A stretch of 64,000 bases of DNA from Cetorhinus maximus (lineage: Eukaryota). Positions within the stretch are counted from its first letter, which is position 1. Every line of letters begins with the position of its first letter. This document shows, piece by piece, positions 3,551-34,026 of the stretch. The stretch is taken from NCBI RefSeq assembly GCF_964194155.1, contig NC_135881.1, positions 202,554,001-202,618,000 of the forward strand. The letters are read 5' to 3'. The position numbers and the translations under genes are program-made. The notes under the pieces are model-generated. The model had not been told where the DNA came from, made no database searches, and saw only the letters and a program-made list of their open reading frames with translations.

Positions 3551-3840
3551 CACAGGTTCATACAGCGATACAGCACAGAGGGAGGCCATTTGGCCAGTCT
3601 AGCCTTTGCAAGCTCTTTGAAAGAGCTATCCAATTAGCCCCAGTCCCTGGCTCCTACCCCATGTCCCTGCAATTTTTTTCCCCTTCTAGTATTTAGCCAA
3701 TTCCTTTTTGAAAGTTGATGTTGAATCTGCTTCCACCAGACTCTGCAGAGAGTCTATGCCAGTTTATAACAAGTCTTTGTGTAAAAAAAATGTTTCCTCA
3801 TGCCATCTCTATTTTTTTTTGCCAATTATTTTAGCTCTTT

Positions 3841-9059: not shown

Positions 9060-9760
9060 ACTGCTTAATTTATTCTGGTATGGACTTGGTGGGCTGAATG
9101 GTCTCCTTCCGTGCCATAATGACTCTAGTGGCTCTGCGACAGAGAAGTACTTTGGATGAATTTTAATTTATCCAGTGGCATCAGATGAATTGCATCAACA
9201 AGCTCTGCACCAACATGAGTAAGCCAATCAGGACTGAGACGGGATTTCTTCACTAAGAGGTTGGTGAATCTTTGGAATTCTCTACCCAGGGGGCTGTGGA
9301 GGCTCAGTCATTGAGCATGTTCAAGACAGAGGTCGATAGATTTCTAGATATTAAAGAGATCAAGGGATACGGGGATCGTGTGGGAAAGTGGCTTTGAGGT
9401 AGAAGGTCAGCCATGATTTCGTTGAAAGGCGGAACAGGCTCAAGGGGCCGAATGGCCAACTCCTATAGAGTGTACAGGGACAGAAGGATCTTGTGGTCCA
9501 TGCGCACAGATCCTTGAAGGTGGCAGGACATATTGAGCAAGTAATTAGCAAAGCCTATGGGATCTTGGGCCTCACAAATAGAGGTAGTGAGTAGAGAAGC
9601 TATGCCACAGCTTTATGAAGCTCTGGTCCAGCCACAAATAGACTATTGCATCCAGCTCTGGTCACCTCGCTTTAGGAATGATGTGATGGTCTTTGAGAGG
9701 GAATCACCAGAATGGTACCAGTGATGAGCAATTTTACCAAAAGGTTAGGTTGGAGAAGAC
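9060..9760 (+). mobile_element. CR1 LINE fragments
   Basis: tttcttcactaagaggttggtgaatctttggaattctctacc ... ggggccgaatggccaactcct, typical CR1 3' ends. Boundaries approximate. Confidence 0.7.
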
Positions 9761-11049
9761 ATCGGTGTGCGATATTTAAACTCCTAACAATCTCCCAACG
9801 GAACTAATTAGAATTAACTTTCAGTACAGCAATTCCTGAGCCTGTGTTTGAGGAAGGGTGTATAAATTCTCAAATGTAATGCCAATTTTTACAATTTCTT
9901 ACTACAAATGTTATAGGTGTCAAAATTAAAAATCTAGGGCACGGAAGTGCTACCCTCCTTTTAAACAGAACAATTACATAAGCCAGGGCTGGTATTTCCT
10001 GTGCATGTCTATGATTACCGCGCTGGTACAAAGTCACAACACTTGTTCATTTTTTTGGGAGATGGAGTGCGGTTGGGCAAGATATCTGCTCCCAGGGTTC
10101 CCTGAATGTGAGTGAGGCAGTCATTGCAGGGCATAGGAGCACAAGGGAATTGTAACAATGTGTGTAAGTTCTCAAAAGAAAGAGGTTTGGTTATTCTTTC
10201 AATGACTCAGTAATATAACACACCAGCCATAAGATGCCTCGTTCATTCCTTGCCTGTGCTCTCTGCCACTATTGTGTTATGGGTTTGGTTGGTGTCTCAT
10301 TGATGAGATTTTGAGACTTGTATGTTTAAAATTCTTTCGAGTTATCAACAGTCACAGATTGCAACTCTTTCAAGTACAATCACAGTTCTTGGTTTCCGGG
10401 AGTGGGACATGAACCCACAACCCTCTGATTCAAAGGCTATGAACTGAGCCACAGCTGACACCTCCTTGTATGTTTAAACATGAACCATTTATTGGTAATC
10501 CTTAACTATGTGGAGATCCCAGTTACTGCCATGCATGGTGCTGCTCCCATGCAGGTTCCTTCTAGACTGTTCTCTGAACCTATTACCATGTGATTCTATA
10601 CATCATACCTTGAGCAGTGCTTTTCTCCAGTCCCACGTTAACCCTTGTTCTGCAGAGCATCTTTACGTTACAATGACATTAAGGCTATTAATGCACGGCT
10701 GATGGTAAATGCCGAGTTGCCCAAATGCCAGGGGGAAACTTGAAACAGCTGCCAAAATGGATTTTGCAATTTGGAAAGTACGAGGAGAGGTTCTGAAATC
10801 AGGAAATGATGTCCCCGACTACTTGTGATGATTTTATAGTAGAGTGAATGTTGATTAAAAGAAAATAGAGCAAAAAAAACACAATTACACTTAAATACAA
10901 GAATGGCTTCACCTAGTAAACAGTACTTTAAAACAGTTCCACAAAATCGTATCTTAACTACCCTCAGAGCTAACCGTCCCCTTTTCTGTTCAGCAACTAT
11001 CCTTATAGATTTCAAAATCTATAGAATTCCAGTAATTTTTACCCACAGT

Positions 11050-11560
11050 GCCTTTTTCTCTTGGGGTGTCCTCTGAGGCTGAAAACAACTGGATCTTCAG
11101 GTCTGGTCATGTGCACACTGTCTTCTGGGAGTTCTGACGAGCTATCCTGCTGTCTTCTGGGAGATCTAAACAGCTACCCCCTCACATAGGCTTCAGTATT
11201 TCCTTAAAGGCATTCCTTCCCTTTGATCTCTCTATTGTCTCAACCGGTCTGTTTAGAAATGCTTTCTTCCCAGACTTGATTAGATTCTCCTTTACTTTAG
11301 CTCTTAGGTTTAAAAAAAGATAAACTGTGATGTTTGTGTTTAACGTTTGTGCTTTTTTGTAAAAAGACAATTTAGTTAAAAAGTGCTATATAAAAAACCC
11401 GACAGTAGGATGTGCTAAGTTGAGGATGTATTGCCCTCTGGTGTAGAATAAGGAATAAAGGAGCCTTCTGTTTTTTTACACAGGAAGTTGGGGTTCAGAA
11501 GCAGATTGCTGTGTGTGTGTGTGTGTTTGTCTGTGCATTCTTAATTGTTAAGAAGTGACA
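11050..11560 (+). mobile_element. Possible solo LTR
   Basis: Internal short direct repeats (tgtcttctgggag), CTATATAAAA, AATAAA twice, GT-rich segment, ends GTGACA. Left end not defined. Confidence 0.35.
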
Positions 11561-11989
11561 AAACACTTCATGAACTCACCCTAACTTTGCCTTATTTATT
11601 TATACCTTTTTACAACCTGCATATATCCCCCTTTGAACTAAAACAACTCAGTTCAAAACCACTCCTGTTACTGTTTTAGGTAAAACTCTGATTGAGGTTC
11701 CTCTTGGTTCATTAACACATCAAAACCATTTCTTACTGTTGGCTTTAGGTTCTTGCAATCACTCTGGCTCTTACCGCAATTACCATATTTACTGTCTTCC
11801 TGTACTGAAGAAATATGACAGGGTTATTAACAGAAGAAAAATAGTACAATTTCTTCTTTTCTTGACAAGGCACACACAACAGCCACAATCAGTGATGTGC
11901 TACATTGGCTTGTGTGTCCGAGTCTAGCAAAGGGGGGATAAAACATGGATTGTTGTCAATGGCATCTGTTAGGGAGAGTGCTTGTGTGA

Positions 11990-12200
11990 ATCCTCAGTAG
12001 GTCAGGCAGCATCCGTGGGGAGAGAAACAGAGTTAACATTTCCTGTCAATGACTTTTCATCAAAACTGACTATAGGTCATCGACCTGAAACACTAACTCT
12101 GTTCCTCTTTTCACAGATGCCGCCTGACCTGCTGGGTATTTCCAGCACTTTCTGTTTTCATTTCAGATTGCCAGCATCTGCAGTATTTTACTTTTGCTTG
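11990..12200. mobile_element. Palindromic Penelope-terminus-derived element
   Basis: Left arm tcagtaggtcaggcagcatccgtggggagagaaacagagttaac is the imperfect reverse complement of the right arm taactctgttcctcttttcacagatgccgcctgacctgctgg. Confidence 0.6.
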
Positions 12201-14212
12201 TGTGAATGTCAGGTGAAAACAGTAGCAGCTGCTACTGTGATGTCTCCAGATGAACAAACAGCCTGCCAGTGCAAAGACACTTTACCAAACCATTTTACAC
12301 TCGCACATGAGCAAGTTGCTGACTAGGGGAGAGGGAAGGGAAACCATTTTTGGTTGAAGTGTTTTGCTGCAGATGACTCTCACTGGTGCCATTAAGAATT
12401 AAATCACAAATTGAGTTTTTTTAAAATATATAGAAAGGGTAGCACCAGGAAAATGGGGAGTGATGAAAACGCCATCAACTAATTACAGCCAATCATTTTT
12501 CATTCTCAAGTATTGCACCCACGTGACCCTGTTTTTAGATGCACATAATCTGATGTTACAACAGAAATGTTTACCCAGGAATTACTTTATAATTAGGATT
12601 TGAAGTTCCTGTAATTGGATTCTTTGTAAAGAACCTTTGAGATGAGATATTTTGTTTATTGGTCGCCTTTCCACAAGCATGGAAAACCTCTCACACAAAA
12701 GACCTATAAAATGCACTTACATAACAGGTACGTAGCAAATATACAGCTCAAATCCATTTCGAACAAAACATTTCAATAAGGGTTTTACTTCCCATGAGGA
12801 TTTTACTCCCATGCCCTAATTGGTCACCCTCTGGCCTTCCCTTCATATGTTTCCATGGTAGCACAGCTAAGATTGTTAACTCCGTGTCAAACATTTTGGA
12901 ACTGAAATCATGTCTTGGCATAGTTATAATTACCACAAACCAGAGACTACTTCCTCGCTACATGGCAAGGTAGAATTCCTAAAAATATCCACAAAGAGCT
13001 TCTGCTGATTTTACTTTTTTTGACATGAAAAAACATGATGAAAATATCAGTTTTACCTCAATGTCTAGCCATCACAAACCTAGTCTCATCTCCCTATTAA
13101 CTGGATTTAAATGTAAAAGATATTGTTACATCGCTTACTCCCACTAATTGGTTTATTTGCTTACGTTAAAAATGGCCCAAGGTCTAATATTTTACCAGGG
13201 AACTTGAAACATCAAATGATGGAAAGTAAACTAAATGATTAATCTTTCTTACTATTATCTTCTGACTCAGGCACATTGCTTATACAAGGAAACCAGTTCT
13301 GTAGCAAAATGCAAATGTCAAGCTGTTAAATACCATTAGATTATGTAGTGAAACTGATAATCTGCTTTATATCATCAGCAGATTTTAAAATAAAATATAT
13401 ATATTACATATAGTAACAACTCTGGCTGAAAGTACCAGGTGGATCAATATTATTCCCAACTGGCTGTTAAGTGATGAACAGGAATAACCTGGGAATCAGG
13501 GTCCTTCAGGTTTTCCCTCCTCTCCAGGGAAAGCCAGACGCTCATGCGCACAATTCGGAGAGGAAATCAACAAAGAAAGGGCAGGAACTGCAGAAAATCA
13601 AACAGGCAAAACCCACCTAGTACTCCAATGTGCTGCATTGCTATGTTAGCCGGCCTTAAACCGGCCATACATGAGAAAATGTAGAACCACATTGTTAAAA
13701 AAAATACCAGGGATGCCTTTATGGCATGACTTTGGAGGAGAAATTGTTTGATACTTCAGTCTAACAGCATAAGAAATGGGAGCAGGAGCAGGCTATATGG
13801 TTCCTTGATCCAGGTCCGCCATATCATTGCTGATCCTCAACTTAAATTCTACTTTCCCACCCAATCTATCGATGTCAGTCTTGAATATTCTCATTGACTG
13901 AAGCATCCGAATCCCTCTCGGACAGAGAATTCCTAAGATTTACGACCTCCTGAGTGCAGAAATATCACCTCATCGCAGTCAAAAAAGGCTGAACCCTTAA
14001 CACGAAACAATAGTCCCTAGATTTAGACTCTCCAGCCAGGGAAAACAGCATCGATTCCAATAAAGAATCAATATTCTTCAAATTGACACAAAGGAAAGTC
14101 TGAGATATTCGAACACACTCAAACATTTTTTTTTCCCCACTTAACCTTAGTGATATCCTTCATTTTGATTGTTCAGTAATAAAAGGTTTATCTTTAGTCG
14201 GCTCCAACAAAA

Positions 14213-14215
<3 letters not shown>

Positions 14216-14244
<29 letters not shown>
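14216..14244. repeat. (CA)n microsatellite
   Basis: Direct reading. Confidence 0.95.
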
Positions 14245-14374
14245 TTGTATAACATTTTCATTCATGTACTATCCAGCACCCATACATAACTACTTAGTAA
14301 TCTTTCTTAGTTATAGCTATGACTAATGACCATGTACTGTGACCACTTCTTAAAGGTGTAAAGCTTCAACTTAC

Positions 14375-14541
14375 AGCTCTTCTCCTTTTCGGGATTTCTT
14401 ATCCAGTACGAGATAAACCATCCCAAAACTGCCTCTCCCAAGTTTCTCTTGTACCTGGTATCTTCCTGCAATCGGTGACTCAGTGCAGACTGCTGCTAAA
14501 GTGTTTGTAACACTTTTTGTGGCTTCTTGGAACTTAGGCAT
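14375..14541 (-). CDS. NEK11: NIMA-related kinase 11, first coding exon (rest of gene lies left of the window)
   Basis: Reverse translation MPKFQEATKSVTNTLAAVCTESPIAGRYQVQEKLGRGSFGMVYLVLDKKSRKGEE(L) matches recalled human NEK11 N-terminus MLKFQEAAK..RYVLQQKLGSGSFGTVYLVSDKKAKRGEEL. Kinase G-loop GRGSFG. Donor GTAAGT at 14374-14369, acceptor ttgttccAG/cAG near 14631. Syntenic with ASTE1 and ATP2C1. Not in the ORF track. Confidence 0.93.
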
Positions 14542-15794
14542 GTTTCCCCTCTCACTGAGTGTAGATTGACAGCTTTCTTCCAGTATGCTTTATTTTTACG
14601 CTCCCACATATAGAGCCTCCCAAACACCTGCTGGAACAACCAAATGCCAAGCAAGCTCAGTTGACACAGTCAAAGGATTGAATACTTCAAATAGCTCTTA
14701 AAACTAACATAAGTGCTAAATTGATAGAGTAACAATACAAAATCTAATGCTAGAAAATTATTATAACTTGTAGCTAAGAATCGGGAACAGCAAACCATTT
14801 AGGGGATAGAAACTGAATGCACCAATTATTCCATCACTGAATAAGATGAAACAGTTCACAAACGATGAAGTAATTCACAAGTGTAACAGAAATTATATTC
14901 AATGACTTTCAGTGCAGTGTTCTATGAAATCATGTAGATGTTTAAGTTGTGTGTTATTTTTGAAAAAAAATCAGAAATTTTAATTGGACTGTTTCACCTC
15001 AAATGGCAACCATTCTTTTGTGAAGAGAGAAGTAGATTTCTGCAATCCTTAATGTCCAATCTACCCCTTAAACACTAACTGCTATTCTTTACTAATGCAG
15101 GTGTAATGCAACTACCATTAAGCATTAAGATCTACCAGTATAAGAACTGCTAACAGGAAACTCAGTCACAGCACCTCTCAATAGCACAGATTCTGTTTGG
15201 GCTCGAGTTTTCCACCTGTGTTCGGCAGCCTATAACCTTTTGCCCATTAACATGAACCTGGAGTAAAATCGCAATCTGGTGCGCGCAAATCCTCTGCCCA
15301 CCTCTTCACCATCCCCCAAATCCTCCCCTCCACATCTTTCCCCACACATAAATGCCTCCACCCCCCCGAACTGATATGCAATTCATAATTGTTTCTGACG
15401 GTTAAGCACTGCATGTATGACAGCGTGAATAACTGGTGAACAACTGTGGAAAAAAGTGCAGTGCGAGTATGTGCAGCAGCCACTTACTAAGGTGTGTTGG
15501 GATGATTTGTATTAGGCAATTTTATATTAACTGTGGCTGATGATAGGTCCTCGAATTGAAACATTAACTCTGTTTCTCTCTCTGCAGATGTTTCCAGACC
15601 TGCTGAGTATTTCCGTTATTTGCTGTTTCTTTCAGAATTCCAGCATCCGCTCTCATGCCTGTGACTCCTCGCTCCAAATCTATTGTGGAGATGGTAGACA
15701 GAAAACAGATCCTTGTGCGACCCCAGCGGTAACACCCTCGCCAGCTGTTCCTGTACGATACCTCTAAATTCTATAAGATAAACAATTGCGTATT

Positions 15795-18031: not shown

Positions 18032-19274
18032 AAAACAGAAATACCTGGAAAAACTCAGCAGGTCTGGCAGCATCGGCGGAGAAGAGCAAAGTTGACATTT
18101 CGAGTCCTCGTGACCCTTCAACAGAACTAAGTAGAAATAGGAAAGGGGTGAAATATAAGCTGGTTTAAGGCGGGTCGGGGGGGAAGAATGGGGGGGTGTT
18201 GTTTGGGACAAGCAAGCAGTGATAGGAGGAGATAGCCAAAAGATGTCACAGACAAAAGAACAAAGAGGTGTTGAAGGTGGTGATATTATCTAAAAGAATG
18301 TGCTAATTAAGAGTGGAGAGCAGAACAAGCAAGGTAGCTCTAGTGGGGGTGGGGTGAAATAAACCATGGGTGGAATACATTTAAAAATAATGGAAATAGG
18401 TGGGAAAAGAAAAATCTATATAAATATTGGAAAAAACAAAAGGAAGGGGGAAGAAACGGAAAGGGGGTGGGGATGGAGGAGGGAGTTCAAGATCTAAAGT
18501 TGTTGAACTCAATATTCAGTCCAGAAGGCTGTAAAGTACCTAGTCGGAAGATGAGGTGCTGTTCCTCCAGTTTGCGTTGAGCTTCACTGGAACGATGCAG
18601 CAAGCCAAGGACAGACATGTGGGCAAGAGAGCAGGGTGGAGTGTTAAAATGGCAAGCGACAGGGAGGTCTGGGTAATGCTTGCGGACAGACAGAAGGTGT
18701 TCTGCAAAGCGGTCACCCAGTCTGCGTTTGGTCTCTCCAATGTAGAGGAAACCGCATTGGGAGCAACGAATGCAATAGACTAAATTGAGGGAAATGCAAG
18801 TGAAATGCTGCTTCACTTGAAAGGAATGTTTGGGCCCTTGGACGGTGAGGAGAGAGGAAGTGAAGAGCCAGGTGTTGCATATTTTGCGTTTGCATGGGGA
18901 GGTGCCGTAGGTGGGGGTTGAGGAGTAGGGGGTGATGGAGGAGTGGACCAGGGTGTCACGGAGGGAACGAACCCTACAGAATGCCGCCAGTGGGGGTGAA
19001 GGGAAGATATGTTTGGTAGTGGCATCATGCTGGAGTTGGCGGAAATGGCGGAGGATGATCCTTTGAATGCAGAGGCTGGTGGGGTGATAAGTGAGGACAA
19101 GGGGGACCCTATCATGTTTCTGGGAGGGAGGAGAAGGCGTGAGGGAGGATGCGCGGGAGATGGGCCGGACACGGTTGAGGGCCCTGTCAACGACCGTGGA
19201 TGGAAAACCTCGGTTAAGGAAGAAGGAGGACATGTCAGAGAAGCTGTTTTTGAAGGTAGCATCATCAGAACAGA
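18032..19274 (-). mobile_element. Penelope-like retroelement (GIY-YIG endonuclease C-terminus plus 3' terminus), 5'-truncated, with TSD
   Basis: ORF 18487-19371 contains NLVYCIRCSQCGFLYIGETKRRLGDRFAEH..PVACHFN..RKLEEQHLIFRLGTLQPSGLN. 13-bp TSD TGGTAGCCGCACA at 18019-18031 and 19275-19287. Confidence 0.9.
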
Positions 19275-19545
19275 TGGTAGCCGCACAGTTGCAGCAATGA
19301 GGAAGACTGGAAAAGGGAGGCGTTTCAATAGGAGATTCTGCGTTTCTCATTCCTATGCACAGACAGCGCAAAAAAAAAGGATTAAACTACTTTGCAAACT
19401 ATGGCAACATCATACACAATGCAATCCACAGGGGTCCCCAAGCCAGCCCTAAAGAAGTGAAGTCAAAGTTGTTCTGCTAGCAACAAGGGTCAGGCAAAGC
19501 CTGCGACAAGTGTTGTAGGAAGCCAGGCACACGTGCCACACTCAC

Positions 19546-19800
19546 CTGCCCAGGTAACAGACAAAGTGATACAGTGAGGAACAGGCTCGCTGTTTAAATT
19601 AACAACTGCAATCAAGCTCTTTAACTATATCTCTCTCTCTCTCTCTATGCAATAGTTTTAATGCAATAAATTCTATAAAATAACATTATGCAATAAATTC
19701 CACGCAGTAGATTTTCTGCAATGCACCTTTGTTTACCCGCTGGCGGATCCCCGGGGGAGGGAGGCGGGTTTTAGCGTCCCGGTTGCTCCGCAACGGCTCG
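19546..19800 (-). other. NEK11: Probable NEK11 non-coding exon 1
   Basis: Strong donor CAG/GTGAGT at 19546/19545 downstream of the CpG-rich promoter; weaker alternative donor near 19737. TSS not determinable. Confidence 0.4.
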
Positions 19801-19925
19801 GGGCATGCCGGGAATCCTTCCCCCGTGAACAGATAGGGCAGTTTCGCAGTGACGTCACTGCAATGGCGGCCGCCACCGGAATCAGCTTCAGCCAGTGTCT
19901 TTCCCGCCTGGATCCCTGGAGCAGA
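19735..19925. promoter_or_regulatory. CpG-rich (probably bidirectional NEK11/ASTE1) promoter with RFX X-box, palindromic CRE and YY1-like site
   Basis: GTTGCTCCGCAAC (19782-19794), GCAGTGACGTCACTGC (19846-19861) and AATGGCGGC (19862-19870) in a local CpG cluster. A + strand donor CCG/GTAAGA lies at 20292/20293. Confidence 0.65.
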
Positions 19926-20491
19926 GTCAGACTGGTTACACACTTGATCTTGATCAGATTAAATCCTGGATCCTTGCAACAATATTTATACCCAGACATC
20001 CTAACTCTACAATTTCTGCCTGAATAGAGAAGAGACTTTTTGAAAATTGAACCTTTATTTGATGCACTTTTTAAAAGAGAGATTATATATATATATGTAT
20101 ATATACACACACATATACCCTGAAAGCTGTTTCGATAAATGATTAAAAAATGTTTCAATATCTCGGCCCTTGAATCTATGGAAAAGTGTTGGGCTGTTTT
20201 CAGTCGGAACTGTTGTTTCGAGTATTTGCCTTCCGGCCTGACACTGCCGAGGACAAGGGGAGGGTTTCACTTTTGAAAGGCTTGTGTTCCCGGTAAGACT
20301 TGTTGCTTTTTTTGTTTAAAACTGTGGATCGCGGGAGGTGGAGTCATTTTAGATCCTCGATTCGTTGAGACCAATAAGGCAACTTTCACATAGTTCAGTG
20401 CCTTCAACGTCTCACGGTTAGGATAACTTTTTGCCCATCCTAGCCAACTCAAGAGGGAGGCGGTGGTGTATGGTCCCTGGACTAATACTCC

Positions 20492-20822
20492 CAAGTAAGG
20501 TAAAAAAAAGCAAAATACTGCGGATGCTGGAAATCTGAAACAAAAACAAAAATAGCTGGAAAAACTCAGCAGTTCTGACAGCATCTGCGGAGAGGAAGTC
20601 AGAGTTAACATTTCGAGTCTGTCTGACTCTTCATCAGAACTAAAGAGAAATAGATTTGAGGTGAGATATAAGCTGTTTAAGGGGTGGGGGGGGGTGGTGG
20701 GACAGGTGAAGCTGTCCGCTGATAGGTGGAGGCAAAGGAGAGATTGCCAAAGATGTCATAGACAAAAGGTCAAAGGGGTGTTGACTGTGGTGATATTGGC
20801 TAAAGGATGTGCTAATGGTGAC
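20492..20822 (-). mobile_element. Penelope 3' terminal fragment inserted into a tRNA-SINE
   Basis: Similar to 18032-18310. AATACTCC direct repeat at 20484-20491 and 20823-20830, and the SINE continues on both sides. Confidence 0.7.
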
Positions 20823-21754
20823 AATACTCCAAATACCCTGGGTGCCCATGTTCAAAGCTCACCATAACAGAAGATGAAACTTGAATTTAAGATGCAAAAA
20901 AAATTGGCAAAATCTCCTCTGGTTCACTTTAGAGACGGGAATATGTGACTCTTAAATGCTTAATAGCCCAGCCCAACAAAAATCTTTCAACCTTTGATCA
21001 CCACAATATTAACCTTGCACCTCGCTGCACATTGGTCTCGTCAGCAGTTTCGCAATGTCAAATTATTTGTTTATCGATTTCAGTGATTTGGTGGGAAGGG
21101 GGGCATTCTGCATTTCATTTTTATTTAACTGAACTTTAGCTTTTGAACTGATAAGCATGAACCAGCTGCTTTATTTTCAATTCATTGTCTAACTGGAACA
21201 CTCTACATCAAACAAGCACAACATCTGCGGGCCGACAAATAGCTTGGGTTTTCCTTGGCGGGCTGGCACCACAAGGTACAGCTTTCATTCCCGACCTTAA
21301 AATACCGCTGTCGTGGAAACGGAAAATGCTGGAAATACTCAGCAGGTTTGGCAGCATTGGTGGAGCGAGAAGCAGAGTTAATGAGAAACCACCACGTTCA
21401 GTAATTACTCTTTGCTGCTTCATTTGTTTATTTTTGTTTTCTGTTGTGTGGCAGTTTAATGCCACCTTCCCAGATGTTTTTGACTAAAAACAAATCTCCA
21501 GCCTTCAAACTGCACCTGCCCAATAGAAGAGGAAGCTGGGGAAGAGTAATCTTAAATTTGGGAGTGATATACTCTTGCCAAAAGAACAATCTTAAACAAA
21601 GTTATTTACATAGATATGAAGGGGGAGGCTGGCTAAGGTTGATTGAGCACATAGACCAAAAAAAAAGGTATTGGCTGTGAATGAACAGTGGGGAACATTT
21701 TTTTTAAATCAAAATGTTCAACAACAAAAACATGTTCTGTTAAAAATTAACCCA

Positions 21755-21830
21755 GAGGCAGGGGCGGGGTGATTCCGGAAGTGACGTTGCGGTGCCAGTG
21801 ACGTTTCTGGGCACCGTTGATTGGCTGGTT
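21755..21830 (+). promoter_or_regulatory. TATA-less housekeeping promoter of HSCB
   Basis: GC box GGGGCGGGG (21761-21769), ETS-CRE composite CCGGAAGTGACG (21775-21786), second TGACG near 21799, inverted CCAAT ATTGG (21820-21824), directly upstream of the ATG. Confidence 0.7.
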
Positions 21831-21836
21831 TGAACG

Positions 21837-22724
21837 ATGCTGCGCGGGCTGCTGTTGCTGCGCGCGGCTCCAACCGCCGCCCGGATCGGAGCGGGGATCC
21901 CGCTCCCCCCGCCGCTTCCCGGGGCGGGGATCCCGCTCCCTCCTCCACCGCCGCCCTGGGCGGGGATCCCGCTCCCGCCGCCGCCGCCTGGGGCGGGGAT
22001 CCCGCTCCCTCCGGCCGCCGGGAGACGGTGTGAGCTGTGGGCCGGGCCCAGGCCCGGGCTCTACCCGCTCCGCGTCCCCGGCCGCCGCGCTCTGTGTACC
22101 GGGGGGGCCAGAGGCTGCTGGCGGTGCGGGGCGGCCCTGGTGGAGCCCTCGGACTTTTTCTGCCCATCCTGCCGGGCCCTGCAGCCCCCGGACCCGACCC
22201 GCGACTACTTCCAGCTGCTGGGCCTCCCGCGCCGCTTCCGCCTGGAGCCCGAGCGGCTCCGGCGCTGCCAGCGCCGCCTCCAGCGGGACCTGCACCCGGA
22301 CAACTTCAGCCGCAGCTCCGAGGCCGAGCGCCGCTTCTCGGAGGAGCAGTCGGCGCTGGTCAACGAGGCCCTCGGGACTCTGCTGAAGCCCCTGACCCGG
22401 GGCCTCTACCTGCTGCGGCTGGAGCTGCCGGGCGAGGCCGGGGTCGAGCAGGAGGAGGAGGCGGGCGGCGGGGTTCCCGGCGGCGGGGACCCCGCCTTCC
22501 TCGCCACCGTCCTCCAGCTCAACGAGCAGCTGGAGGAGGCCCGGAGCCAGGAGGAGATCCGCCGGGTGGCCGAGGAGGTGGAGGCCCGGCTCCAGGAGCT
22601 GACCGAGGAGGTGGCCCGGGCCTTCGAGCAGGGCCGCCCGCGGGAAGCCCGCCCGCTGCTGCGCCAGATGCGATTTTGGAGCAGCGTCGGCGAGCGGGTG
22701 AAGGAGCGGCTGCTGCCCCGCTGA
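21837..22724 (+). CDS. HSCB: Iron-sulfur cluster co-chaperone HscB/Hsc20, mitochondrial, intronless, 295 aa
   Basis: Arg/Leu-rich N-terminus, [23 protein letters not shown] tetracysteine motif, J-domain with [16 protein letters not shown] and C-terminal scaffold-binding domain (MRFW). Collinear with recalled human HSCB and uninterrupted. Confidence 0.93.
21891..22012 (+). repeat. Coding minisatellite, 4 units of 33-36 bp (AGIPLPPP..)
   Basis: Core GCGGGGATCCCGCTCCC at 21891, 21924, 21960 and 21993; spacings 33, 36 and 33 preserve frame. Confidence 0.9.
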
Positions 22725-22809
22725 TGGTGGCGGGGGGGGGGGGGGGGGGAGGAGAGAGAGAGAGCGAGGTAAAGTATCAGGGGTATCACATAACTGGGGG
22801 GGGGGGGGG

Positions 22810-23383
22810 TAACTCTTGTAGAGTTAAAACAATTAACTAAATTAACAATAACAAGGGAGAAATCAAGCACAGCCCCTAAGTCAGGTCAGCTGTAAAATCA
22901 AGGAAAAACTTTAAAGGAACCTTACAAACATCAAACCAAAATGTGATTAAAGGGGTCAACAAAACACCCACCGGGCACAGAAGGCCTCGATGGTGCCGGC
23001 AGACACCGCGTGCTCCCTTTCCAGGGACACCCGGCCGCGAATGTAGCCGCGGAAGAGGGACAAACAATCGGGCGGGACTCCCCCCTCGATCGCCCGCTGC
23101 CTGGACCTGTTAATGGCCAACCTGGCTAGGCCCAGGAGCAGGTTCACGAGGAGGTCCTCCTCCTTCCCGACCCCCTTCTGCACCGGGTGTCCGTAGATCA
23201 GGAGCGTGGGACTGAAGTGCAAACAAAACAGCAACAGAAGGTTTTCTAAATAACTAAAAAGGGAGTGCAGCCAATGACACCCTATATAAACGTGGTCCAC
23301 GGACTCCACAAAACCGCAAAAAGAGCAGGTGTCTTGGGAGTCCGTGAACCTACACATTCTACGGTTGTATGGGACTGCTGCGT
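22810..23383 (-). mobile_element. Tx1/L1-clade LINE 3' fragment (ORF2 CCHC zinc finger and 3' UTR)
   Basis: ORF 22956-23417: HAAVPYN..CSFCGFVESVDHVYIGC..LLLGLARLAINRSR..F..RW. Flanked by G runs at 22796-22809 and 23384-23388. Confidence 0.8.
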
Positions 23384-23507
23384 GGGGGTCCATTGTAGAG
23401 AAACCACCTCTCCCCATTCAAACCCAATTTAATTTAGTATTTATAATTGATGACAGTCAGACCACCTTGAAATGTTGACCTTGATTGCACGGAGAATGTG
23501 TACAGAA

Positions 23508-23662
23508 GTGGGGGAGTTTTGCTTTAGCCCCACAGGGCGTAGGGGAGGAATTTGACACCCGTGGGATTTGATGCTCCCGCCAAAGTCGACGGACTTTTGA
23601 ACGACTCGCTGCAATTTGCGCCCCGCCACGGCGGGGGGGGGGGGGCCATAAAATTCTGCCCC
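23508..23662. mobile_element. Harbinger-type MITE
   Basis: Right end AAAATTCTGCCCC (reverse complement GGGGCAGAATTTT) resembles the TIR at 3841; degenerate left end GGGGGAGTTTT; CpG-rich interior. Confidence 0.5.
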
Positions 23663-23679
23663 GTTTTTTGCACAGTTTC

Positions 23680-25400
23680 GGTTCACCCTAAGGAGGGACA
23701 TCCTTTAATCGGAAGCAGCTCAGAGAGGTTGGCTCGGCTGATTCTTGGGGTGAATGAGGAAAGGTTGGGCCAGTACTCGTTGGGAGTTTAAAAGAATGAT
23801 CCTATTGAAAGATATGAGATTCTATATGGGGCTTGACAGGGTAGATGCTGAGAGGATGTTTCCCCCACATGGAAGCACAGTTTAAAAATAAGGGGTCTCC
23901 TATTTAAGACAGAGGTGAGGAATTTCTTCTCAGAGGGTCCTTAGTGTTTGGAATTCTCTTCCCCAGAGAGCAGTGGAGGAATAAAATCAAGGCTGAGATC
24001 GATAGATTTTTTTAATTAACAAGGGAGTTGAGCGCTACGGGGCGGAAGGCAGGAAATTGGAGTTAAAAAGCCACAGTCAGATCTTATTGAATGGCGGAGC
24101 TGGCTCGAGGGACCAAATGTCCTGCACCTCCTACTTCTTATGTTCTTATGTATGTAGTATTAATGTAATCACCACAGACAGGCTGGAATTATCAGCTCCA
24201 ACTTGCATGAGCGCAAAATGTGACGGTGAATTTTTATTTTACTCAAAATTAATCCAGATTTAGTTGGGAATGTTTGATAGGAATTAAAACCTCCAACCTC
24301 TCCAATATTCAATCAGATCAAGGCTCATCCCTCTCCATATTTCTTATTACCCTTGGCTGGCAAAGATTTGTCAATCTCAGATTTAAAATTATTAATCAAC
24401 TACTTTTTTTTTGTTTGAGTTCCCCATTTCTACCACCCTTTGCACAAGGAGCTGCTCCCTAACTTCTGGATCTGATTTTTCATGTTATGTCCCCTTGTTC
24501 TGAACTCCCCCATCTGTTAAAAAACTATGTACTCCAACGAGATTTGTTTAAAAATCCTAAAAACCTCAATCAAATCACCCCCACCATCCCCCCCAACTTT
24601 CTATATTCCATATAAAATAGCACAAGCCTGGTTTATGTAACTTTCCTTGTAATTTAACCCTTGTGACATTCTGGTGAATATGCACTACGTTCCTTTCAAG
24701 GTCAATATATCCCTTCTAAGGTGCAGTACCCAGAACTGGACACAGCGCTGCAGATGTGTAACCAGTTACATTTCCCTTAAAACACTGAATTTTAATTAAA
24801 ACATGAAAATCACAAACATATTTTAACCTTACCACATACAATACAATCACAATATACTTGGGAAATAAGTGGTATATAAATCCCAACACGGCTTTGCCCT
24901 TCCCATATCTCTAAATTCTAGCCCCGTCTGCACTTCACCTCACTCGATTCTGATGCTGTCCTCGTGTGTCTCCTCACTTAACAGCCAATTGAGTACTTAC
25001 AAACATACAAAATAGGAGCAGAAGTAGGCCATTCAGCCCTTCGAGCCTGCTCCGCCCTTCAATAAGTCCACGTTCCCATCCACCCCCGATAACCTTTGAT
25101 TCCCTTGCCTAACAAGAATCTATCCACCTTCACTTTAAAAATGTTCAATTACCCCCCCCACCTCCACCGCTTTCTGAGGCAGAGAGCTCCAAAGTTGCAC
25201 AGCCCTCAGAGAGAAAAAGAATTCTCCTCACCTCTGTCCTAAAAGGCCCAAATTTTAAAACAGTGCCCCCGGTTCTGGACTCACCCACAAGAGGAAACAT
25301 CCTTTCCACGTCCACCTTATACTCCAATCAAGTCACCTCTCACTCTTCTAAACTCCAGTAGAAACAAGCTCAGTATACCCAACCTTTTCTTGTAAGACTC
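23680..25400. mobile_element. Cluster of CR1 3' fragments in both orientations
   Basis: ERMFPLVGESRT-type ORF remnants and CR1 3' UTR motifs; + at about 23680-24150, - at about 24250-24760 and 25000-25400. Confidence 0.7.
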
Positions 25401-26258
25401 TCATACTTTAAACTGTAATCACATGAAATGTATCCTCCCTGAAGTCTCATTCTTTGGATTGATGTCCGTTTCTTTGTTACACCCTCGGGGTCCTCTGTGA
25501 TGTTTCTCTATGCAAAAGTTGCTAAATAAATACAAAATACTGATATTTCTTACACTCAATTGGTTCAGCAGATATGTATCCAAACTCTAAAATACCACAA
25601 GGTTGATGATATCTCTATTGCTACCACAGCAGTGTGCTAACAAATTTAAATAGTTGCAATTAAAAGTACAATTTTTAATAGGGGGTACTGCATCCAAACC
25701 CAGTTGGTGCCAAATATTGATCACTTTAGGTTAGTAATTTGCTTAAGCAGTCAAATGTGCACAGTAGTCGTGACTGGGGCTCACTGGAGACTGATCTAAA
25801 ATTTTTGATCACCGCACCTGCTGTAACCTAATGAGCTACCATGGGCATCATGATCGGACAACCTGGACCCTTATGTAGAAACAGAAGCCGGAGTAGGTCG
25901 TTCGGCCCTTCGGACTTGCACCGCCATTCAATATGATCATGGCTGATCCTCTATCTCGATGCCGTACTCCCGCTCTCTCCCCATACCCCTTGACGCATCT
26001 GGCAGAGCAGAGGGGGATAGGAATGGCTGCTTTCATTGGGGAGGTGGAAGGGAATTGGTAACATTCTCCTAATTTCTGCTTAGTTGTGGTAGAACTTTCA
26101 ATATGTAAAAGGCTGAGCAAATATATATTGATATAGTGAATTTGGACTTTACTTCAGTCGCTAAATGAGCATATGCACTATATACAATGTTCACGTATGA
26201 CCTAACCAGCCCAACTCATTGTATTTGTTACCTAGGGTGAAGCCTTTCGCTCATTAAC

Positions 26259-27614
26259 ATGGGTATCCATGGATTGATGACTTACATTGGAGAAAATAAT
26301 ATATTTTTTAATAACGTCAAGGTACAAAATACGAAAATTGTAATCGATGGCAATAACTTATTTCATAGACTTTACTTTGACTCTGGTCTTGATCTTGAGC
26401 ACGGAGGTGAATATGATTTGTTTACTGACGTCATCTGCAAGTTCTTTGAAGCCCTGTCTCTCTGTAATATTACACCATATGTGGTATTTGATGGTGGATG
26501 CGACTGTACTGATAAGAAGTTTGAAACTATCAAACAGCGTGCCAGGGAGAAAATCCAAAAGGCACATGTTATCTCGAGGGGCGGGGGAGGGTTGCTACTG
26601 CCGCTGCTCAGCCCAGAAGTTTTTAAACAAGTTTTAGTGCATTTGCAAGTACCTTTTGTCCAGTGCCATTCAGAAGCAGACCGTGACATTGTAACCCTCG
26701 CTAATCAGTGGGCCTGTCCAGTCCTAACACTAGACAGTGACTTCTGTGTCTTTGATTTGAAGGCTGGTTATTGCCCCCTCAATTACTTTAAATGGCAAAA
26801 CATAATTACTCATAAAGACCGCACCGGATCCTACATTTCGGCCCAGTGTTTCTCCGTGGAGAATTTCTGTAACCATTTTAGCCACATAAATAAAGCTCTT
26901 CTCCCTCTGTTTGCGGTGTTGAATGGCAATGATTACGTGAATCTTCCTTCCTTGGAGGCCTTTTTCACCCGAGTGCGTTTCCATGCAACGACTTCTGTGT
27001 CAACGGGAAGGAAAAACATGCGGATTCAAGGGCTCCTCAACTGGCTGTCCAGATTTACTGATCCGAAGGAGGCCATTGAAAATATTCTGAAGTACCTAAA
27101 ACAAAATGAACACGAAGAGGTCCGCAAAGTTCTCTGCTCTCTTATGGATGAATATACTCAGTCAGAAGTGGACCTTACAAAGTTCTTTCAGAATAAAGAT
27201 GTGAGACCCCACATTGCGACTGCTTTGGCCAGCAAAGCCCCCGAATGGGTATGCCTTGCTCTAATCAAAGGAGAGTTAGCCCCATTTCTTAGTGACTGCT
27301 TGATCTTAAAGAGGGTGTTTTTGCGACCTCAGGTGGAGAATACAGGCAGGCCCAGCAGTAATAGTTGCTCGTTGCATATTCGCCAGGTTATGTATGGACT
27401 TCTACTATATACCAATGAGCCTTGTCGTGACTTAGCATTGGATTTGGCGAGCAGCACGTGGGGAGGGGCAGGCATTGATGCTGAGGAACACAGCAAAGTG
27501 CATTGTGTGGAGGAATTCGATAGATATGAGCAAACACTGAGAAAAACTAGTGTTCAAGCGGTGCTGAAAAGATTCAACTCAGATGAAATCTATTCATTGC
27601 AAAGACTACCAGAG
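26259..27614 (+). CDS. ASTE1: Protein asteroid homolog 1 (XPG/PIN-family ssDNA endonuclease), coding exon 1
   Basis: MGIHGLMTYI..KIVIDGNNLFHRL..YVVFDGG..SEADRDI..CPVLTLDSDF..GNDY are XPG-N/I motifs. Acceptor cctAG at 26234-26235, donor GAG/GTGAGT, phase 0. Confidence 0.96.
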
Positions 27615-28914
27615 GTGAGTGTACACATATGATATAAAGTGTGAGATATAGGAACTAAGGTATATGGTATTACACAATGTCATGGATATGTCTCCTATGG
27701 AGGGAGATCTCTTCTAAGTCATAACCACCCGTGCCTTGATCATCACAATAATATTTCTTTAACTTTGATTTTTTGGGGGAAAATTATGTGCATCAAGGCT
27801 GGACCTGAAATGTTTTTCATTTTGGCTCTGTTCACAGTATCATCCACTGTTTATCCATATACAAATTAAAGTTTCCTACTTTTACTCCAAAATCAGAGCA
27901 CCCAACATGACATTTTTATTTTAAAAGCCATATATCCAGCAGTACCTCTGAGATTGACATAAATTGGCTAATAATGGGCACTTCCTTGCCATTGGTCGAC
28001 CACTATGAGTCAAGATAAGTCAGCCTAACTTCATGTGAAATCCATACATTTTACATAGTTAATAACCAACTTTGTACTAATATATTTCCCAATATATTGA
28101 AAACAAAATTATATGGAAATGGACACCAGCTTAGATTTTGAAATTTGGTGAGCTTCCAGTTTAAATTTACTGTTTTAAATTCATGTGAAATATTTGTAGA
28201 AATTGTCCAAGTTACCACAAATTCTGCTTTTATCACAGAGTTATAGTTTGTAACTTTCAACATTTGTACTTTAAATTTTCAGCTTTTGGGTGTGTTTTTT
28301 TAACACCCTTACTGATTTGTGTCTCAGACTCAGTATTGGAAACATGCTGAATTACATTTTAAGCAAAAAAGCTTTCCTGATCCCAATATATCAAGTAGTA
28401 ATAAAACAAAGTGCTGGAATCACTCAGCACATCTGGCAGCATCTGTGGAGAGAGATGATGAAACATTAGCTCTGATGCTGCTTGACCTGCTGAGTATTTC
28501 ATACCAATTAGGAGGAGTCGGCCATTCGGCCCCGAACCTGCTCAAGCATTCAATAAGATCATGGCTGATCTGACTGTGGCCTCAACGCCACTATCCTGCC
28601 TCTCTACTCTTTGATTCCCTTGTTAGTCAAGAATCTATTTCTGCCTTAAAAATATTCAATGACCCTGCCTCTGTCACTCTCTGGGCAAGAGAGGTCCACA
28701 GACTACCTACCCTCAAAAAATTTCTCCTCAACTCCATTTTAAATTTTTAAATAAATTTCCAACATTTTCTGTTATTTCAGATTTGCAGTATCCACAGTAT
28801 TTTGCTCTTATATTAGGCAGTAAACAGTTCTGTTAATTAGGAATCAATACTGAGCAGTTACGTGTAAATGGATTGGTTTGTTAGAGGATCTTGATCACAC
28901 GTTATCTTTTGCAG

Positions 28915-29122
28915 ATTTCTACGTCAGACAGAATCAGCTTTCTACTGGACACCTTGAGGACAAAACCTGATGTGCTGGCCTTGCCAGCTCACCTGCAGTT
29001 AACACTTGCTGTAACCTGCTCCTGGGTAGCTCATGCTGAACCCAGAGTGACATTGTACCATCTCCAGGCTTTGCTGCTTTGCATTGTAACTGGAGAACTA
29101 CATAAAATAATACACAAGCCAG
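28915..29122 (+). CDS. ASTE1: ASTE1 coding exon 2
   Basis: ttttgcAG / ISTSDRISFLLDTL..LPAHLQLTLAVTCSW..LQALLLCIVTGEL..KP / GTAAAT; 208 nt, phase 0 to 1. Confidence 0.9.
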
Positions 29123-29429
29123 GTAAATAGAAACTACAAAAAGACAGCATAGCATAATAGCATTTCTGTGTTTATATATTGTAAATTAGAGTGGCGTTAT
29201 TCAGTGGTGAAAGATACTAGCAGGTGAAAGATTCGTTGGTTTCCCGTAGGCTGTTTCTTGAATGCATGGCTATCCACAGTGCAGGCAAGGATGAATTGTC
29301 TGATTTTTGTTGGGACTGCTGATCTTTCTAGCTTGCCTTTTGTCCTTGGCTGTCTGTATTCTTTGCTGCTTAAAGGGAACACCACCACTACTTGAGATTG
29401 CTCCCCAGGTAGATCTTTCTTGTGCATGT

Positions 29430-29700: not shown

Positions 29701-31108
29701 ATTAGTGCTGCATCTTATCACTTTATAATTCTACTACACTGAGTTCTTGATCTGAAACAGTCCCCTCCTTTCATTTCCTCTTTTCCCTTCCTTTACTGTC
29801 CTGGATAAAATAAGTGACAATTAATTTGTGGTTCAGTCAACACCTCTTTGTTGCATTATTGACAGATATAGAACGAATTGTTATTGTCAGAATGGTCAAC
29901 CCCCTCGCCCCCCCAAATGTTCCTTAGGCTGTGTTTATTTGTGCCATAACACTAGGGGGAGCACTTCCTGCACATACACAGAGGGAGTGTCAGCCACAGA
30001 AAGTGAGATCTTTTAAATGCAGCTGGTGTGTCGTAACTCATTTTATCATTTACAAGTAGACAGATAGCCTAAATTAAGTTTTTGAGATGCAAACTGAAAC
30101 CCGGTATTAGGGAGTAAATTAAAACTGGATCATGTTAGGATTAACTTTTCCCCAAGATGATCTGTTCATTTGCCTGTCATTAAAATTCTCCACCAAAACA
30201 CATCAGGGTATTGTTTTTTTTAAATTGGAACTTTTTTTTGCTGATGCTATCAAAAAGACTTTGGGAAACATCAAAATGTATGCGCCTACCCCGTCTTGTA
30301 TTATTTATTAACACGTACTATTTTCTACAAGCGAATGTATTCTCTGGTGACTGGGCTCTCCTGGTTCACTCTTTATAATTCTTGTACCTGTGACAAGGGC
30401 CTTTATTCACCACAATTCTTCAGTGTTTTGAATTAAAAAGTAAAATTAAGTAAGTAATAAAACACTTTTAAAAAAAACTATCATGCAATAGGCAATGGGC
30501 ACAAGGCAATGATTCTGGGATGAAGAACTCCTTTAACTATCAAATGAGCTAGCCAGGCTATGCAGGAGTTGGCATTTGCTGTAGCACTGATGCTCCTGCC
30601 ACTGACCAGAAAATATTAGTGTATTGGAGTGGTCACTGCATATCAGTTGGAAGCAGGAACCAGGATTTGATTGCCTCTTTCTTCCCACCCCACAAAAACA
30701 GCTACAGTAGCCTGCCTGTTGCCCTGACTCAGACCAGCTAGATTGACACAAAAAGAAAGTCGAATCTGGCGTCTTTTGCTAGTTTTAAATCATTTCATGG
30801 AAAAGCTTATGGAATTATCTTTTTGCAACTTTACTCAAAGACTAGTGTTCTGAAGCAAGGGTTAGTATTAAATGGTGGCGACAGACTTAATTCTTAGGAG
30901 AATCTTTTGATGGCTTTCCCAGAAGCAGTCACAGGGTTTCAGTTGACTGAGATGTGGATACATTTAGGGAATCCCCATGACCATTCTGCAGCGTGACAGG
31001 CCTGCGTCTGTAAACTCAGATGTTAAATCTAACAATGGAAATAATAAATAATTGCTGAGGAACTTGGAGGGAGCATGACTAATTATGTTTACAATCAAAT
31101 CTGCCTAG

Positions 31109-31304
31109 GTAACAGCAGCTCTGAGGAGAGGAACGTCAGAATGGTGTATGACAGACTGTCTCAGCTGAGACAAAGAAAGCAGCAGATGGGGAATCTGGAT
31201 ATAGATGTAGCTCACGTGTTCTCTCAGTGGCAGAGCTGTCTTTTAATGGGAATCTATCTAAATCGGCTCCTGTGCTGTCCCCTTCCAGTGCCTGATATTA
31301 CACG
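31109..31304 (+). CDS. ASTE1: ASTE1 coding exon 3
   Basis: cctAG / NSSSEER..LDIDVAHVFSQWQSCLLMGIYLNRLLCCPLPVPDIT / GTAAGG; 196 nt, phase 1 to 2. Confidence 0.92.
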
Positions 31305-31574
31305 GTAAGGAGATATATACAAGATAATTGTAGATGGCAGCGTGATCACTAAGGATTATTAAATACCAGCTTAATGTTCATCGTCTCATCTGAAAAATGG
31401 ATAAAGCCTTGTTCCCTCTCAATTCCCTTAGATTACAGGACATAGCAGTTTGCTTGGTAAATGTGTGAATATAGTTCATATTTAATATCCTGCAAATGCT
31501 ATTAGTGATGAATGAGATCCTTGCCTATATATGTGAATTTGGCAAAAAAATACAGTAATTATGGTGCAGTAGTT

Positions 31575-31860: not shown

Positions 31861-33731
31861 TTGTGGTTTTAGATTTACAATATGTTCAGACTATTCCAAT
31901 ATTTTAAGATTAAGAAAATGATCATATAGTTAGTAGAAAGTAGTTATTTTATCCTGTATATAACTGGTTACAAATCCCTTCCGCTGCCCTCTCCCCACCC
32001 CCCCACCCAGTTAAAATACACCAACTATCTGTGATCCGGGACAGAGGAATAATATCAATATGCACAGAAATATGGGCAGAAAGATGATGGATGAAATTTA
32101 ATGTGATACATTTTGGGAGGAAGGATAAAGCATGTTCACTAAATGGTGAAAACTTTACAGTGCATAGAAAGACCTGGTGTTCAGTACAGAAATCTTTGAA
32201 AGTGAGAGGTTAAGTTGTAAATAAGCTTATAGGACCTCTGATTTCTAAATTAAAGTGTAGAGTACCAATGGCCAAGAGTTAATGCAAACAAGTACATATT
32301 GATTGGGCCTCAGTTAGAATGATATTCAGTTTTGCTTGCCTTATTTTAGGAGGAATATCAAGGCTGTGGAGAGGCTGCGAGAGCAATAATTTCTGATTGA
32401 GAGCTTTAATTAGGAGGATAGACTAGAGAAACCTGAGCTCTTTTCACAGGAATACAGAAGGGCAAGAAGAGATTTGATGGAGGTGTTCAAAGGCCTTTGA
32501 TAAAAAGGAAAAATCGATTGCCACTGGTCTGAATTGGTCATCAGAAAGTATAGATATGAGGTCATCACCAAAAATGGAGACATTACGAGCGTTTTCTTTT
32601 CACCCAGATAAGATGTTGGGACAGAGTCCCAAAGTCAGAATTCATAAAATGGAAATTGGTGATTTCAAATTTAAATGGGGAGTGGGAATGTGGAACTCTG
32701 CTGAAAGGCTGCGGATACTTGGCAAAATGAAAGTTTTAAAATTGAGAAATTATTCAGTAAGGGTATCCATGAATATGGAGCTAGCAGGTAAATGGAGGTG
32801 AGGTGCTGTTGTTCCTATGGATGGGGCAAATAGTCTCCTTTTGTCCTGTATAATTCTAGAATAGGGCCTTGGGATGTGGTTAATACCTTTCAGTATACTG
32901 TTTTCTAATTTATGAGCAAACTGTTATGATTGAACTCAGATTAGCACAACAGAAATACAAACTTATTATGGTACAGCTATTTCCATACCTCTGTTATATG
33001 ATGAAAGCAGTTTAGTTGCACAGGTGAATAACCCAGAAGAGGCACCCTGCCCTTTCCAAAAAAAAGTTTCAGGATATGCACTAGGTGGTGGTCGGTAACA
33101 GATAATACTGACAACTGAGACTGCTGGGTGCTGACTGTTTGGAAGGGCATTGGAAGAGGCAAGCAGAAATGAAAAACTCATTTGGCCAAGAGGGCCTAGA
33201 GAAAATAGAGGCCAGCAAATCATTCACCTTCCCAGCCCACTGTCTTCCTCTGCAGCAAATGCGGCAGAGACTACTATGCCAGAGTAGGGCTCCTGAGCCA
33301 CGCCAAGCAATGCTTAATACAGAGTTGACCACCACGGCGCATACGCGGAAGGCTGCCACAGATAGATAACCTTCCTTCCTGCTTTCCAGTTTGTAATAGT
33401 TCTCTTCAATTTCTGCATTTCATGTAACACAGTAAATGTATGTTCTCTCTGAATGAAAAAATGACTCTCTGCCCCCAGCACCTAATGAGTTCATCTCAGA
33501 TCAAGAATTTCCCTTAGCTGGCCTCAGATCAGTGCTGGAAGAGATTTGTCTGTTACCAGGGAGAAACTTCCACAGTGTTCACTTTTTACTAATATATTTC
33601 CAACCCTGCTTATGATCAGAAGTTTTACATTTTAAGCAATGCTACCAGTTTTTGAATAAACCTAATTGATTTCCTGCATAGTCCTTTAAGAATTCCCTCT
33701 CATATCTATTCTTTCTGTCTGTTCTGGAAAG

Positions 33732-34026
33732 CCTCTATAGTGGGTCTTTTGTGCATCGTTTGTATCAAGAGCTAAAATCGATGGTTGCTGCAAAGGACCT
33801 ATTAAAGGGTTCTCTGATTGCAAGTGAGCTCCTGCACACACTGACCGCCGCAATACCAGCAGACCTCTTCCAGAAGAAAAGTAAGTCCAAGTCTCACAAC
33901 AAACTGAAGGAAAAGCAAACAGCTAATTCAACTATGTCATCCATGAGCAAAGATAATCAACGGCTCCCTACCTGGCATGATGCAAATAACCGATTTGCAG
34001 CCTTATCAACTGAGGATTTTGGATAA
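33732..34026 (+). CDS. ASTE1: ASTE1 last coding exon
   Basis: Pyrimidine tract then AG / (R)LYSGSFVHRLYQEL..NNRFAALSTEDFG*. The four exons total 2055 nt = 684 aa plus stop. Confidence 0.9.

Follow-up and report, generated by a model that had tools for sequence, protein, structure and literature searches.

Cetorhinus carries HSCB as a single uninterrupted coding exon, which lies upstream of the ASTE1 coding exons and on the same (plus) strand within the window, i.e. the whole 64 kb stretch of DNA analysed here. The relocation of HSCB to this site is real and old; it is apparently undescribed, and the kind of event behind it is known. We consider it probable that the gene is an orphan retrogene, nested in ASTE1 intron 1 and provided with its own promoter. 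The coding region comprises the following features:

21837 to 22724, plus strand: single-exon HSCB (HSC20/Jac1-type) coding sequence of 295 amino acids, from the open reading frame and from profile, PDB and fold matches
21837 to 22100, plus strand: probable mitochondrial presequence, amino acids 1 to about 88, with 9 Arg, 1 acidic residue and a terminal cleavage-like motif RRALC
21887 to 22020, plus strand: 33-bp coding minisatellite, 3.9 copies, within the presequence
22116 to 22172, plus strand: tetracysteine metal-binding motif C94, C97, C109, C112
22203 to 22400, plus strand: J domain, HPD at amino acids 153-155 (22293-22301), continuous over the junctions after amino acids 162 and 192
22488 to 22703, plus strand: HSCB C-terminal (IscU-binding) domain, PF07743, amino acids 218-289

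The preliminary description of this DNA had reported an uninterrupted frame of 295 codons with HscB motifs, and this was borne out by Pfam, TIGR00714, the match to 3bvo and the motif check. The stop-free frame encodes a complete HscB. Pfam HSCB_C was detected with E 5.6e-17 (62.3 bits, cut-off 22.1) and TIGR00714 hscB with 59.2 bits (cut-off 46.75); HscB_4_cys (PF18256; E 1.9e-5, 24.8 bits) remained just under its cut-off of 26.2, and DnaJ (E 4.4e-4) was below its cut-off, too. The top PDB sequence match was human HscB 3bvo (E 1.9e-45). The predicted model of amino acids 86-295 (mean pLDDT 90.1) superposed on this structure with a TM of 0.82/0.87. Both CWxC..FCxxC and HPD were found, the latter being invariant in 20/20 and 48/48 aligned sequences. 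The features of HscB/HSC20 membership are thereby present, namely the HPD J domain, the C-terminal three-helix domain and the N-terminal tetracysteine of animal type. Compared with vertebrate HSCB/HSC20 (human 3bvo), E. coli HscB and yeast Jac1, the domain order, the tetracysteine, the HPD and the fold are the same, and a presequence is probably present.

An entry identical to the 295-residue protein already exists in the protein collection; among named entries, HscB of Carcharodon carcharias comes closest to it (87% over the core). In comparison with vertebrate HSCB, the shark protein is shifted towards Arg, Ala, Gly and Pro, is about 43% identical to rodent HSCB and has a presequence expanded by repeats. 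According to the known rules of matrix targeting, residues 1-88 are probably a matrix presequence. The minisatellite units expanding it are proline-rich, and similar units occur in the proteins of Carcharodon, Scyliorhinus and Mustelus, with none in those of carpet sharks or rays.

The HSCB frame has GC1/2/3 values of 0.80/0.57/0.93, compared to 0.50/0.35/0.45 in the ASTE1 exon; in the HSCB core GC3 is 0.96 and GC2 0.49. All five checked motifs are kept in 16 of 19 chondrichthyan HSCB proteins, the other 3 being truncated or aberrant models. Over 190 sites, per-site conservation in elasmobranchs correlated with that in 94 outgroups (Spearman 0.34, p 1.4e-6); of the 45 near-invariant outgroup sites, elasmobranch HSCB keeps 39. 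At the protein level, these values indicate an intact gene under purifying selection and long-term constraint. The earlier claim of an intron-free, relocated HSCB at ASTE1 that is a functional gene is supported; sharks and rays share the relocation, and introns are ancestral at the checked junctions. The known HSCB pathway consists in binding of ISCU and HSPA9 and hand-on of Fe-S clusters, as outlined in the available text of PMC10235907. By analogy, the shark protein should have these activities: it would be imported into mitochondria, its C-terminal domain would bind the ISCU scaffold, and its HPD would stimulate HSPA9 to bring about Fe-S cluster release, as HSCB does elsewhere. The new location does not imply new biochemistry.

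Vertebrate HSCB genes have several coding exons (six in human), unlike the single one in the shark. Three of 145 representatives (P0207, P0223 and P0243) lack exactly the residues corresponding to window amino acids 163-192 (or 162-191). These exon-skipping forms belong to one snake (P0207), one Gouania (teleost) and one teleost-like sequence, and the skipped exon of 30 residues is continuous in the window frame. Among 113 proteins (the named entries and the window protein) no gap of this type was found. A distant homolog, P0275, which is only 39% identical to any named vertebrate, has an insert of 46 amino acids at the same junction, and this insert begins and ends like a read-through intron. 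Truncated HSCB models break near amino acids 192, 250 and 266, and the window frame is continuous at all three; a further exon junction is presumably located near amino acid 129. Because exon-skipping isoforms and an intron-like insert share a junction that is continuous here, the introns are ancestral at the tested junctions and were lost in the window gene, as the preliminary description had supposed. The intronless state itself was seen in the Cetorhinus genome only. Isoform labels on NCBI names are rarer in elasmobranchs (1/15) than in the outgroup (31/77, hand count, p 0.016), which fits an intronless elasmobranch HSCB and lends it weak support.

A GC-shifted composition was considered as a marker of intron loss and rejected, as the shift also occurs in all 5 snakes, and an internal exon is skipped in a snake isoform. 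Over amino acids 140-282, GARP is 0.31-0.41 in all 19 chondrichthyans compared to a median of 0.20 in 94 named outgroups. Five of these 94 reach at least 0.30, all of them snakes (P0293, P0305, P0320, P0341, P0380), indicating an independent GC shift in an intron-bearing gene. ASTE1 controls exhibited no composition shift. Eight Logan HSCB entries were excluded from both the composition and the skip analysis.

Around the HSCB frame, the following features were assigned:

14375 to 14630, minus strand: first coding exon of the upstream kinase (ATG 14541; Pkinase E 0.014)
19737 to 19850 (start approximate), minus strand: probable non-coding first exon of the upstream kinase (donor 19736)
20200 to 20298 (start approximate), plus strand: probable non-coding ASTE1 exon 1 (ETS site 20230; donor 20293)
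21761 to 21824, plus strand: HSCB promoter candidate (GC box 21761, ETS-CRE 21776-21786, second CRE half-site 21799, inverted CCAAT, ATTGG, 21820)
22698 to 22703, plus strand: cryptic splice donor in the last HSCB codons (simple consensus score 5.2; the exon ends at the corresponding position in the Pristis HSCB model)
22769 to 22774, plus strand: candidate donor 44 nt past the HSCB stop (score 7.4, seventh best GT in 19800-26240)
26236 to 27614, plus strand: ASTE1 first coding exon (acceptor AG 26234-26235, ATG 26259)

The ASTE1 coding exons extend over about 26259-27614, 28906-29127, 31108-31305 and 33724-34023. Beyond them a P-type ATPase is encoded on the minus strand, which we take from sequence and gene order to be ATP2C1. 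There is no other foreign gene between the kinase and ASTE1. The site had been described as lying between the 5' end of NEK11 and ASTE1. For ASTE1 this holds; the upstream gene is represented by the start of a kinase domain only, and no search returned NEK11. An Atlas search returned no name for this kinase, and by motif scan no further kinase exons were found in 1-14300. From its N-terminus and the gene order we presume that it is NEK11. Rfam gave 0 matches within the window.

The postulated donor at 20293 is present on the plus strand (CCG/GTAAGA, score 8.85, third best). Joined to the ASTE1 acceptor at 26235/6, this donor, which lies beside the ETS site, yields a leader free of ATG; ASTE1 intron 1 therefore probably extends from 20293 to 26235 with HSCB inside. 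Two arrangements had been offered, HSCB nested in ASTE1 intron 1 or HSCB occupying an ASTE1 first exon; nesting is favoured, yet splicing from HSCB to ASTE1 is modelled in a ray (sawfish).

Human HSCB has a head-to-head cell-cycle partner, which we take to be CHEK2. That HSCB again lies divergent from a checkpoint kinase, as had been pointed out, is not supported as meaningful: its own promoter candidate is located about 1.9 kb from the first exon of the kinase, with a probable ASTE1 exon between them. As far as the accessible text of PMC4176359 describes it, human HSCB is arranged head-to-head with its cell-cycle neighbour without co-regulation. With a separate promoter and a probable ASTE1 exon intervening here, and human HSCB not co-regulated with its neighbour, the renewed pairing is probably a coincidence.

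Some minor elements were observed on the kinase side. The kinase-side end of the head-to-head promoter (19845-19870) contains the palindromic CRE CAGTGACGTCACTG, with a word beside it that we take as a YY1-like motif. An ORF of 287 amino acids in the first intron of the kinase (18487-19350, minus strand) has a weak GIY-YIG match and is presumably a Penelope-type retroelement fragment. Another of 173 amino acids (6519-7040, minus strand) with a weak Myb/SANT-like match (E 0.031) presumably derives from a Harbinger-type transposon.

The promoter attributed to HSCB was recovered as promoter-like sequence consisting of GC box, ETS-CRE, CCAAT and CpG island. The ETS-CRE 11-mer CGGAAGTGACG, a motif defined in PMC3464117 (text available in part), begins at 21776, 51-61 nt before the HSCB ATG. 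It has one match in the 64 kb window, and 0/100 shuffles gave one. CpG o/e is 0.76-0.94 over 21601-22800. No ATG occurs between the promoter candidate and the start codon, and no strong splice acceptor was found upstream of the ATG. This region is a candidate CpG-island ETS-CRE promoter of HSCB, from which the gene would be expressed. In the searched files of the ETS-CRE paper's supplements there is no entry for HSCB, CHEK2, ASTE1 or NEK11. A disease-linked ETS site controls human HSCB, according to the part of PMC10235907 that is available. The shark ETS site may have been inherited, by an mRNA started upstream or by a move as DNA, or may be convergent. CpG-island promoters are reported for 9 of 10 broadly expressed mammalian orphan retrogenes in the accessible part of PMC4772013.

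Within 1.2 kb of the HSCB stop no AATAAA was found, the nearest signal being ATTAAA at 22946. This signal is at the end of an ORF of 153 amino acids just 3' of HSCB (22956-23417, minus strand), for which Pfam gave no match. We assume a resemblance to the C-terminal end of a Tx1-type LINE ORF2.

The linkage of HSCB and ASTE1 was followed in other species using the length of the longest sequence record listed per HSCB and ASTE1 entry as chromosome identifier, compared by hand. Both genes were on the same record in 10/10 elasmobranchs with both entries (Carcharodon, Mustelus, Heterodontus, Scyliorhinus canicula, Heptranchias, Chiloscyllium plagiosum, Rhincodon, Pristis, Rhinoraja and Narcine), which are related and not independent species and for which, outside Pristis, record identity means the same chromosome and not adjacency. 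The shark gene is thus on the ASTE1 chromosome, unlike that of the 15 tetrapods with both entries (0/15), some of which are scaffold-level entries or clusters with several members. Because the species are related, no weight is placed on a Fisher test of this contrast. The comparison covers elasmobranchs and tetrapods, with pairs from ray-finned fish, coelacanth and chimaera absent; 7 of the 17 named elasmobranch HSCB entries had no ASTE1 record from the same species and were left out.

Adjacency became visible in Pristis. The HSCB model of this sawfish matches the window to 22697, at the cryptic GT, and continues with a 13-residue tail, NEADRTVTWVSMD. Read in a shifted frame from its acceptor, the ASTE1 start exon gives GEAFRSLTWVSMD followed by a stop. 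The two share 9/13 identities, the sole match of at least 6 among 127,916 window positions. Being spliced onto the ASTE1 start exon, the model shows in sequence that HSCB adjoins ASTE1 in a ray. The shared chromosome in sharks and rays and the adjacency in Pristis indicate that the arrangement predates the shark-ray split, roughly 270-300 million years ago. Chondrichthyan HSCB proteins formed one clade in a tree built from a selection of 52 proteins, for which the aberrant tails of Pristis and Pristiophorus had been cut off (99/95 with Callorhinchus, whose long branch makes its placement less sure; 99/98 for elasmobranchs). One HSCB per species was found in 17 other named sharks and rays, in addition to a partial Callorhinchus sequence, among the matches listed (best 120 of 390).

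In the favoured reading, a spliced HSCB mRNA would have been reverse-transcribed before the shark-ray split and inserted on the ASTE1 side of the head-to-head NEK11/ASTE1 promoter, ahead of the coding exons of ASTE1. There it would lie within intron 1 of ASTE1, in the same orientation as this gene, and be transcribed from a CpG-island ETS-CRE promoter of its own. The copy would have replaced the intron-bearing parent and would now be the working HSCB gene of sharks and rays. Retroposition is the simplest explanation, since it accounts for the new location and the intron loss by one event. Around the ORF, a poly(A) tract and a target-site duplication were looked for and neither was found; the RNA step is therefore deduced from the missing introns and the new location, and such scars are not expected to survive at the age of this insertion. 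An RNA-mediated origin is likely. Loss of the parent is likely as well, as suggested by the single copies among the matches listed (best 120 of 390); a shark parent that evolves slowly could have a rank beyond these 120. HSCB evidently lies away from its parental locus, and we infer the direction of the move.

Alternatively, the HSCB exon might be the first exon of ASTE1; a single promoter would then produce a two-gene mRNA in which the donor at 22769 is joined to the acceptor at 26236. Such a structure would not conflict with a retro-origin. In its favour, HSCB is connected to the ASTE1 start exon in the sawfish model, a good donor follows 44 nt past the stop, no canonical AATAAA is nearby, and Hypanus HSCB is labelled isoform X1. 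We nevertheless regard such a transcript as rather unlikely, because the stronger 20293 donor provides an ATG-free ASTE1 leader from the kinase-facing promoter. Moreover, the sawfish join cuts the last HSCB residues and overlaps the ASTE1 start out of frame, and thus looks like read-through or an annotation by-product. The ATG that overlaps the HSCB stop does not share the ASTE1 frame, and full-length ASTE1 (P0034) is found on a contig of 2,425 nt with no room for HSCB, a weak point as such contigs can break at splice branches. The stop/ATG overlap itself (TGATG, 22722-22726, plus strand) was rejected as a route for re-initiation at ASTE1, being out of frame with the 22769 donor; its reading frame relative to ASTE1 depends on an error-prone G run. 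In a more specific form, the retrocopy would have arrived in the ancestor of all cartilaginous fishes, bringing its ETS promoter to the 5' region of ASTE1 and turning into the first ASTE1 exon, which we consider doubtful. In that case, a spliced mRNA would have been kept in sharks and rays for hundreds of millions of years, with one promoter serving a mitochondrial Fe-S chaperone and a DNA-repair nuclease.

HSCB might also have moved as DNA together with its promoter, its introns being lost separately, before or after, by recombination with its own cDNA and with no duplicate stage. This would explain the single copy directly, and it would agree with the missing retroposition scars and with the ETS element just upstream of the start codon both here and in human HSCB (PMC10235907, available part). 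The move is unlikely, however, as it needs two rare events and as no other foreign gene came to lie between kinase and ASTE1. In addition, housekeeping promoters often contain ETS and CRE elements (PMC3464117), and a retrocopy can take over the promoter of its parent (PMC4772013).

A functional retrogene with its intron-bearing parent still beside CHEK2 in sharks and rays appears quite improbable. No second chondrichthyan HSCB was found among the matches listed, and the NCBI names are listed without a '-like' suffix, which in NCBI practice marks an assigned ortholog. On the other hand, the search covers the best 120 of 390 matches. Furthermore, most retrogenes coexist with their parents, according to the available part of PMC4772013.

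That an intronless HSCB at ASTE1 is the ancestral state of jawed vertebrates, the bony-vertebrate gene being derived, is very improbable. The position data cover no lamprey, amphioxus or chimaera (the Callorhinchus entry has no contig), which leaves room for this reading, but P0275 has its intron-like insert at the junction shared with snake and teleost isoforms. Vertebrate genes rarely gain several introns. That the gene is a young processed pseudogene or results from misassembly, for which the long G-runs flanking the HSCB 3' end might speak, is largely refuted by intact orthologs on the ASTE1 chromosome in 10 shark and ray species, the adjacency in sawfish, motif retention and the strong GC contrast between codon positions.

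As a probable orphan retrogene, shark HSCB resembles RNF113A, MARS2 and TRMT12 (Ciomborowska et al., PMC3548309; Carelli et al., PMC4772013), which are intronless functional copies of housekeeping genes at a new locus, apparently single-copy and with a CpG-island promoter. As far as the text of these papers is available, those cases are from human and other mammals with demonstrated parent loss, whereas parent loss of shark HSCB is deduced. A figure legend in PMC4772013 describes the mouse Taf9 retrocopy in Ak6, nested in a host intron and with chimeric transcripts. Shark HSCB is like this pair (in the part described there) in its same-strand insertion, probably in a 5' host intron, where splicing between retrocopy and host exons is possible. 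It differs in that the modelled splice leads from HSCB into a downstream coding exon of the host, whereas in the mouse pair host exons splice to the retrocopy. Both classes, orphan retrogenes as well as retrocopies nested in introns and forming chimeric transcripts, have been described before (PMC3548309 and PMC4772013).

The main text of PMC3548309 does not mention HSCB, and neither do papers in which three or more of the locus terms occur or the main text of the VGP preprint, whose retrocopy tables were outside the scope. No description of the shark HSCB structure or position was found in the open literature among the matches listed, with subscription papers and bioRxiv supplements outside the scope. 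The cases in which an intron-free copy has apparently taken the place of a housekeeping gene are here extended by a very old and lineage-wide one from sharks and rays, which are outside the orphan-retrogene surveys of PMC3548309 and PMC4772013 as described in their accessible parts. If the parent has disappeared, HSCB would escape pipelines such as that of the VGP preprint, which detect retrocopies by aligning mRNAs of the same species over the exon junctions of the parent. As a rare genomic character, the insertion could be mapped on the tree of sharks, rays and chimaeras, and the head-to-head arrangement of HSCB and CHEK2 would prove dissolvable if the parent is indeed lost. The adjacency of HSCB and ASTE1 also explains at least one wrong-looking public protein model, that with the sawfish HSCB tail.

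Several elasmobranch HSCB models look mis-predicted (P0018, P0009, P0019, P0020), including the sawfish one with its tail from the ASTE1 exon. The Heterodontus model has a reverse-transcriptase N-terminus, that of Heptranchias starts at an internal Met, and the Pristiophorus model ends in an unrelated tail, for which tblastn against the window gave no match beyond the HSCB ORF. The chromosome carrying HSCB is about 49 Mb in Hemiscyllium and Chiloscyllium plagiosum compared to 151-163 Mb in Rhincodon and Stegostoma (P0010, P0011 and P0006, P0007, respectively), suggesting a fission or fusion within carpet sharks.
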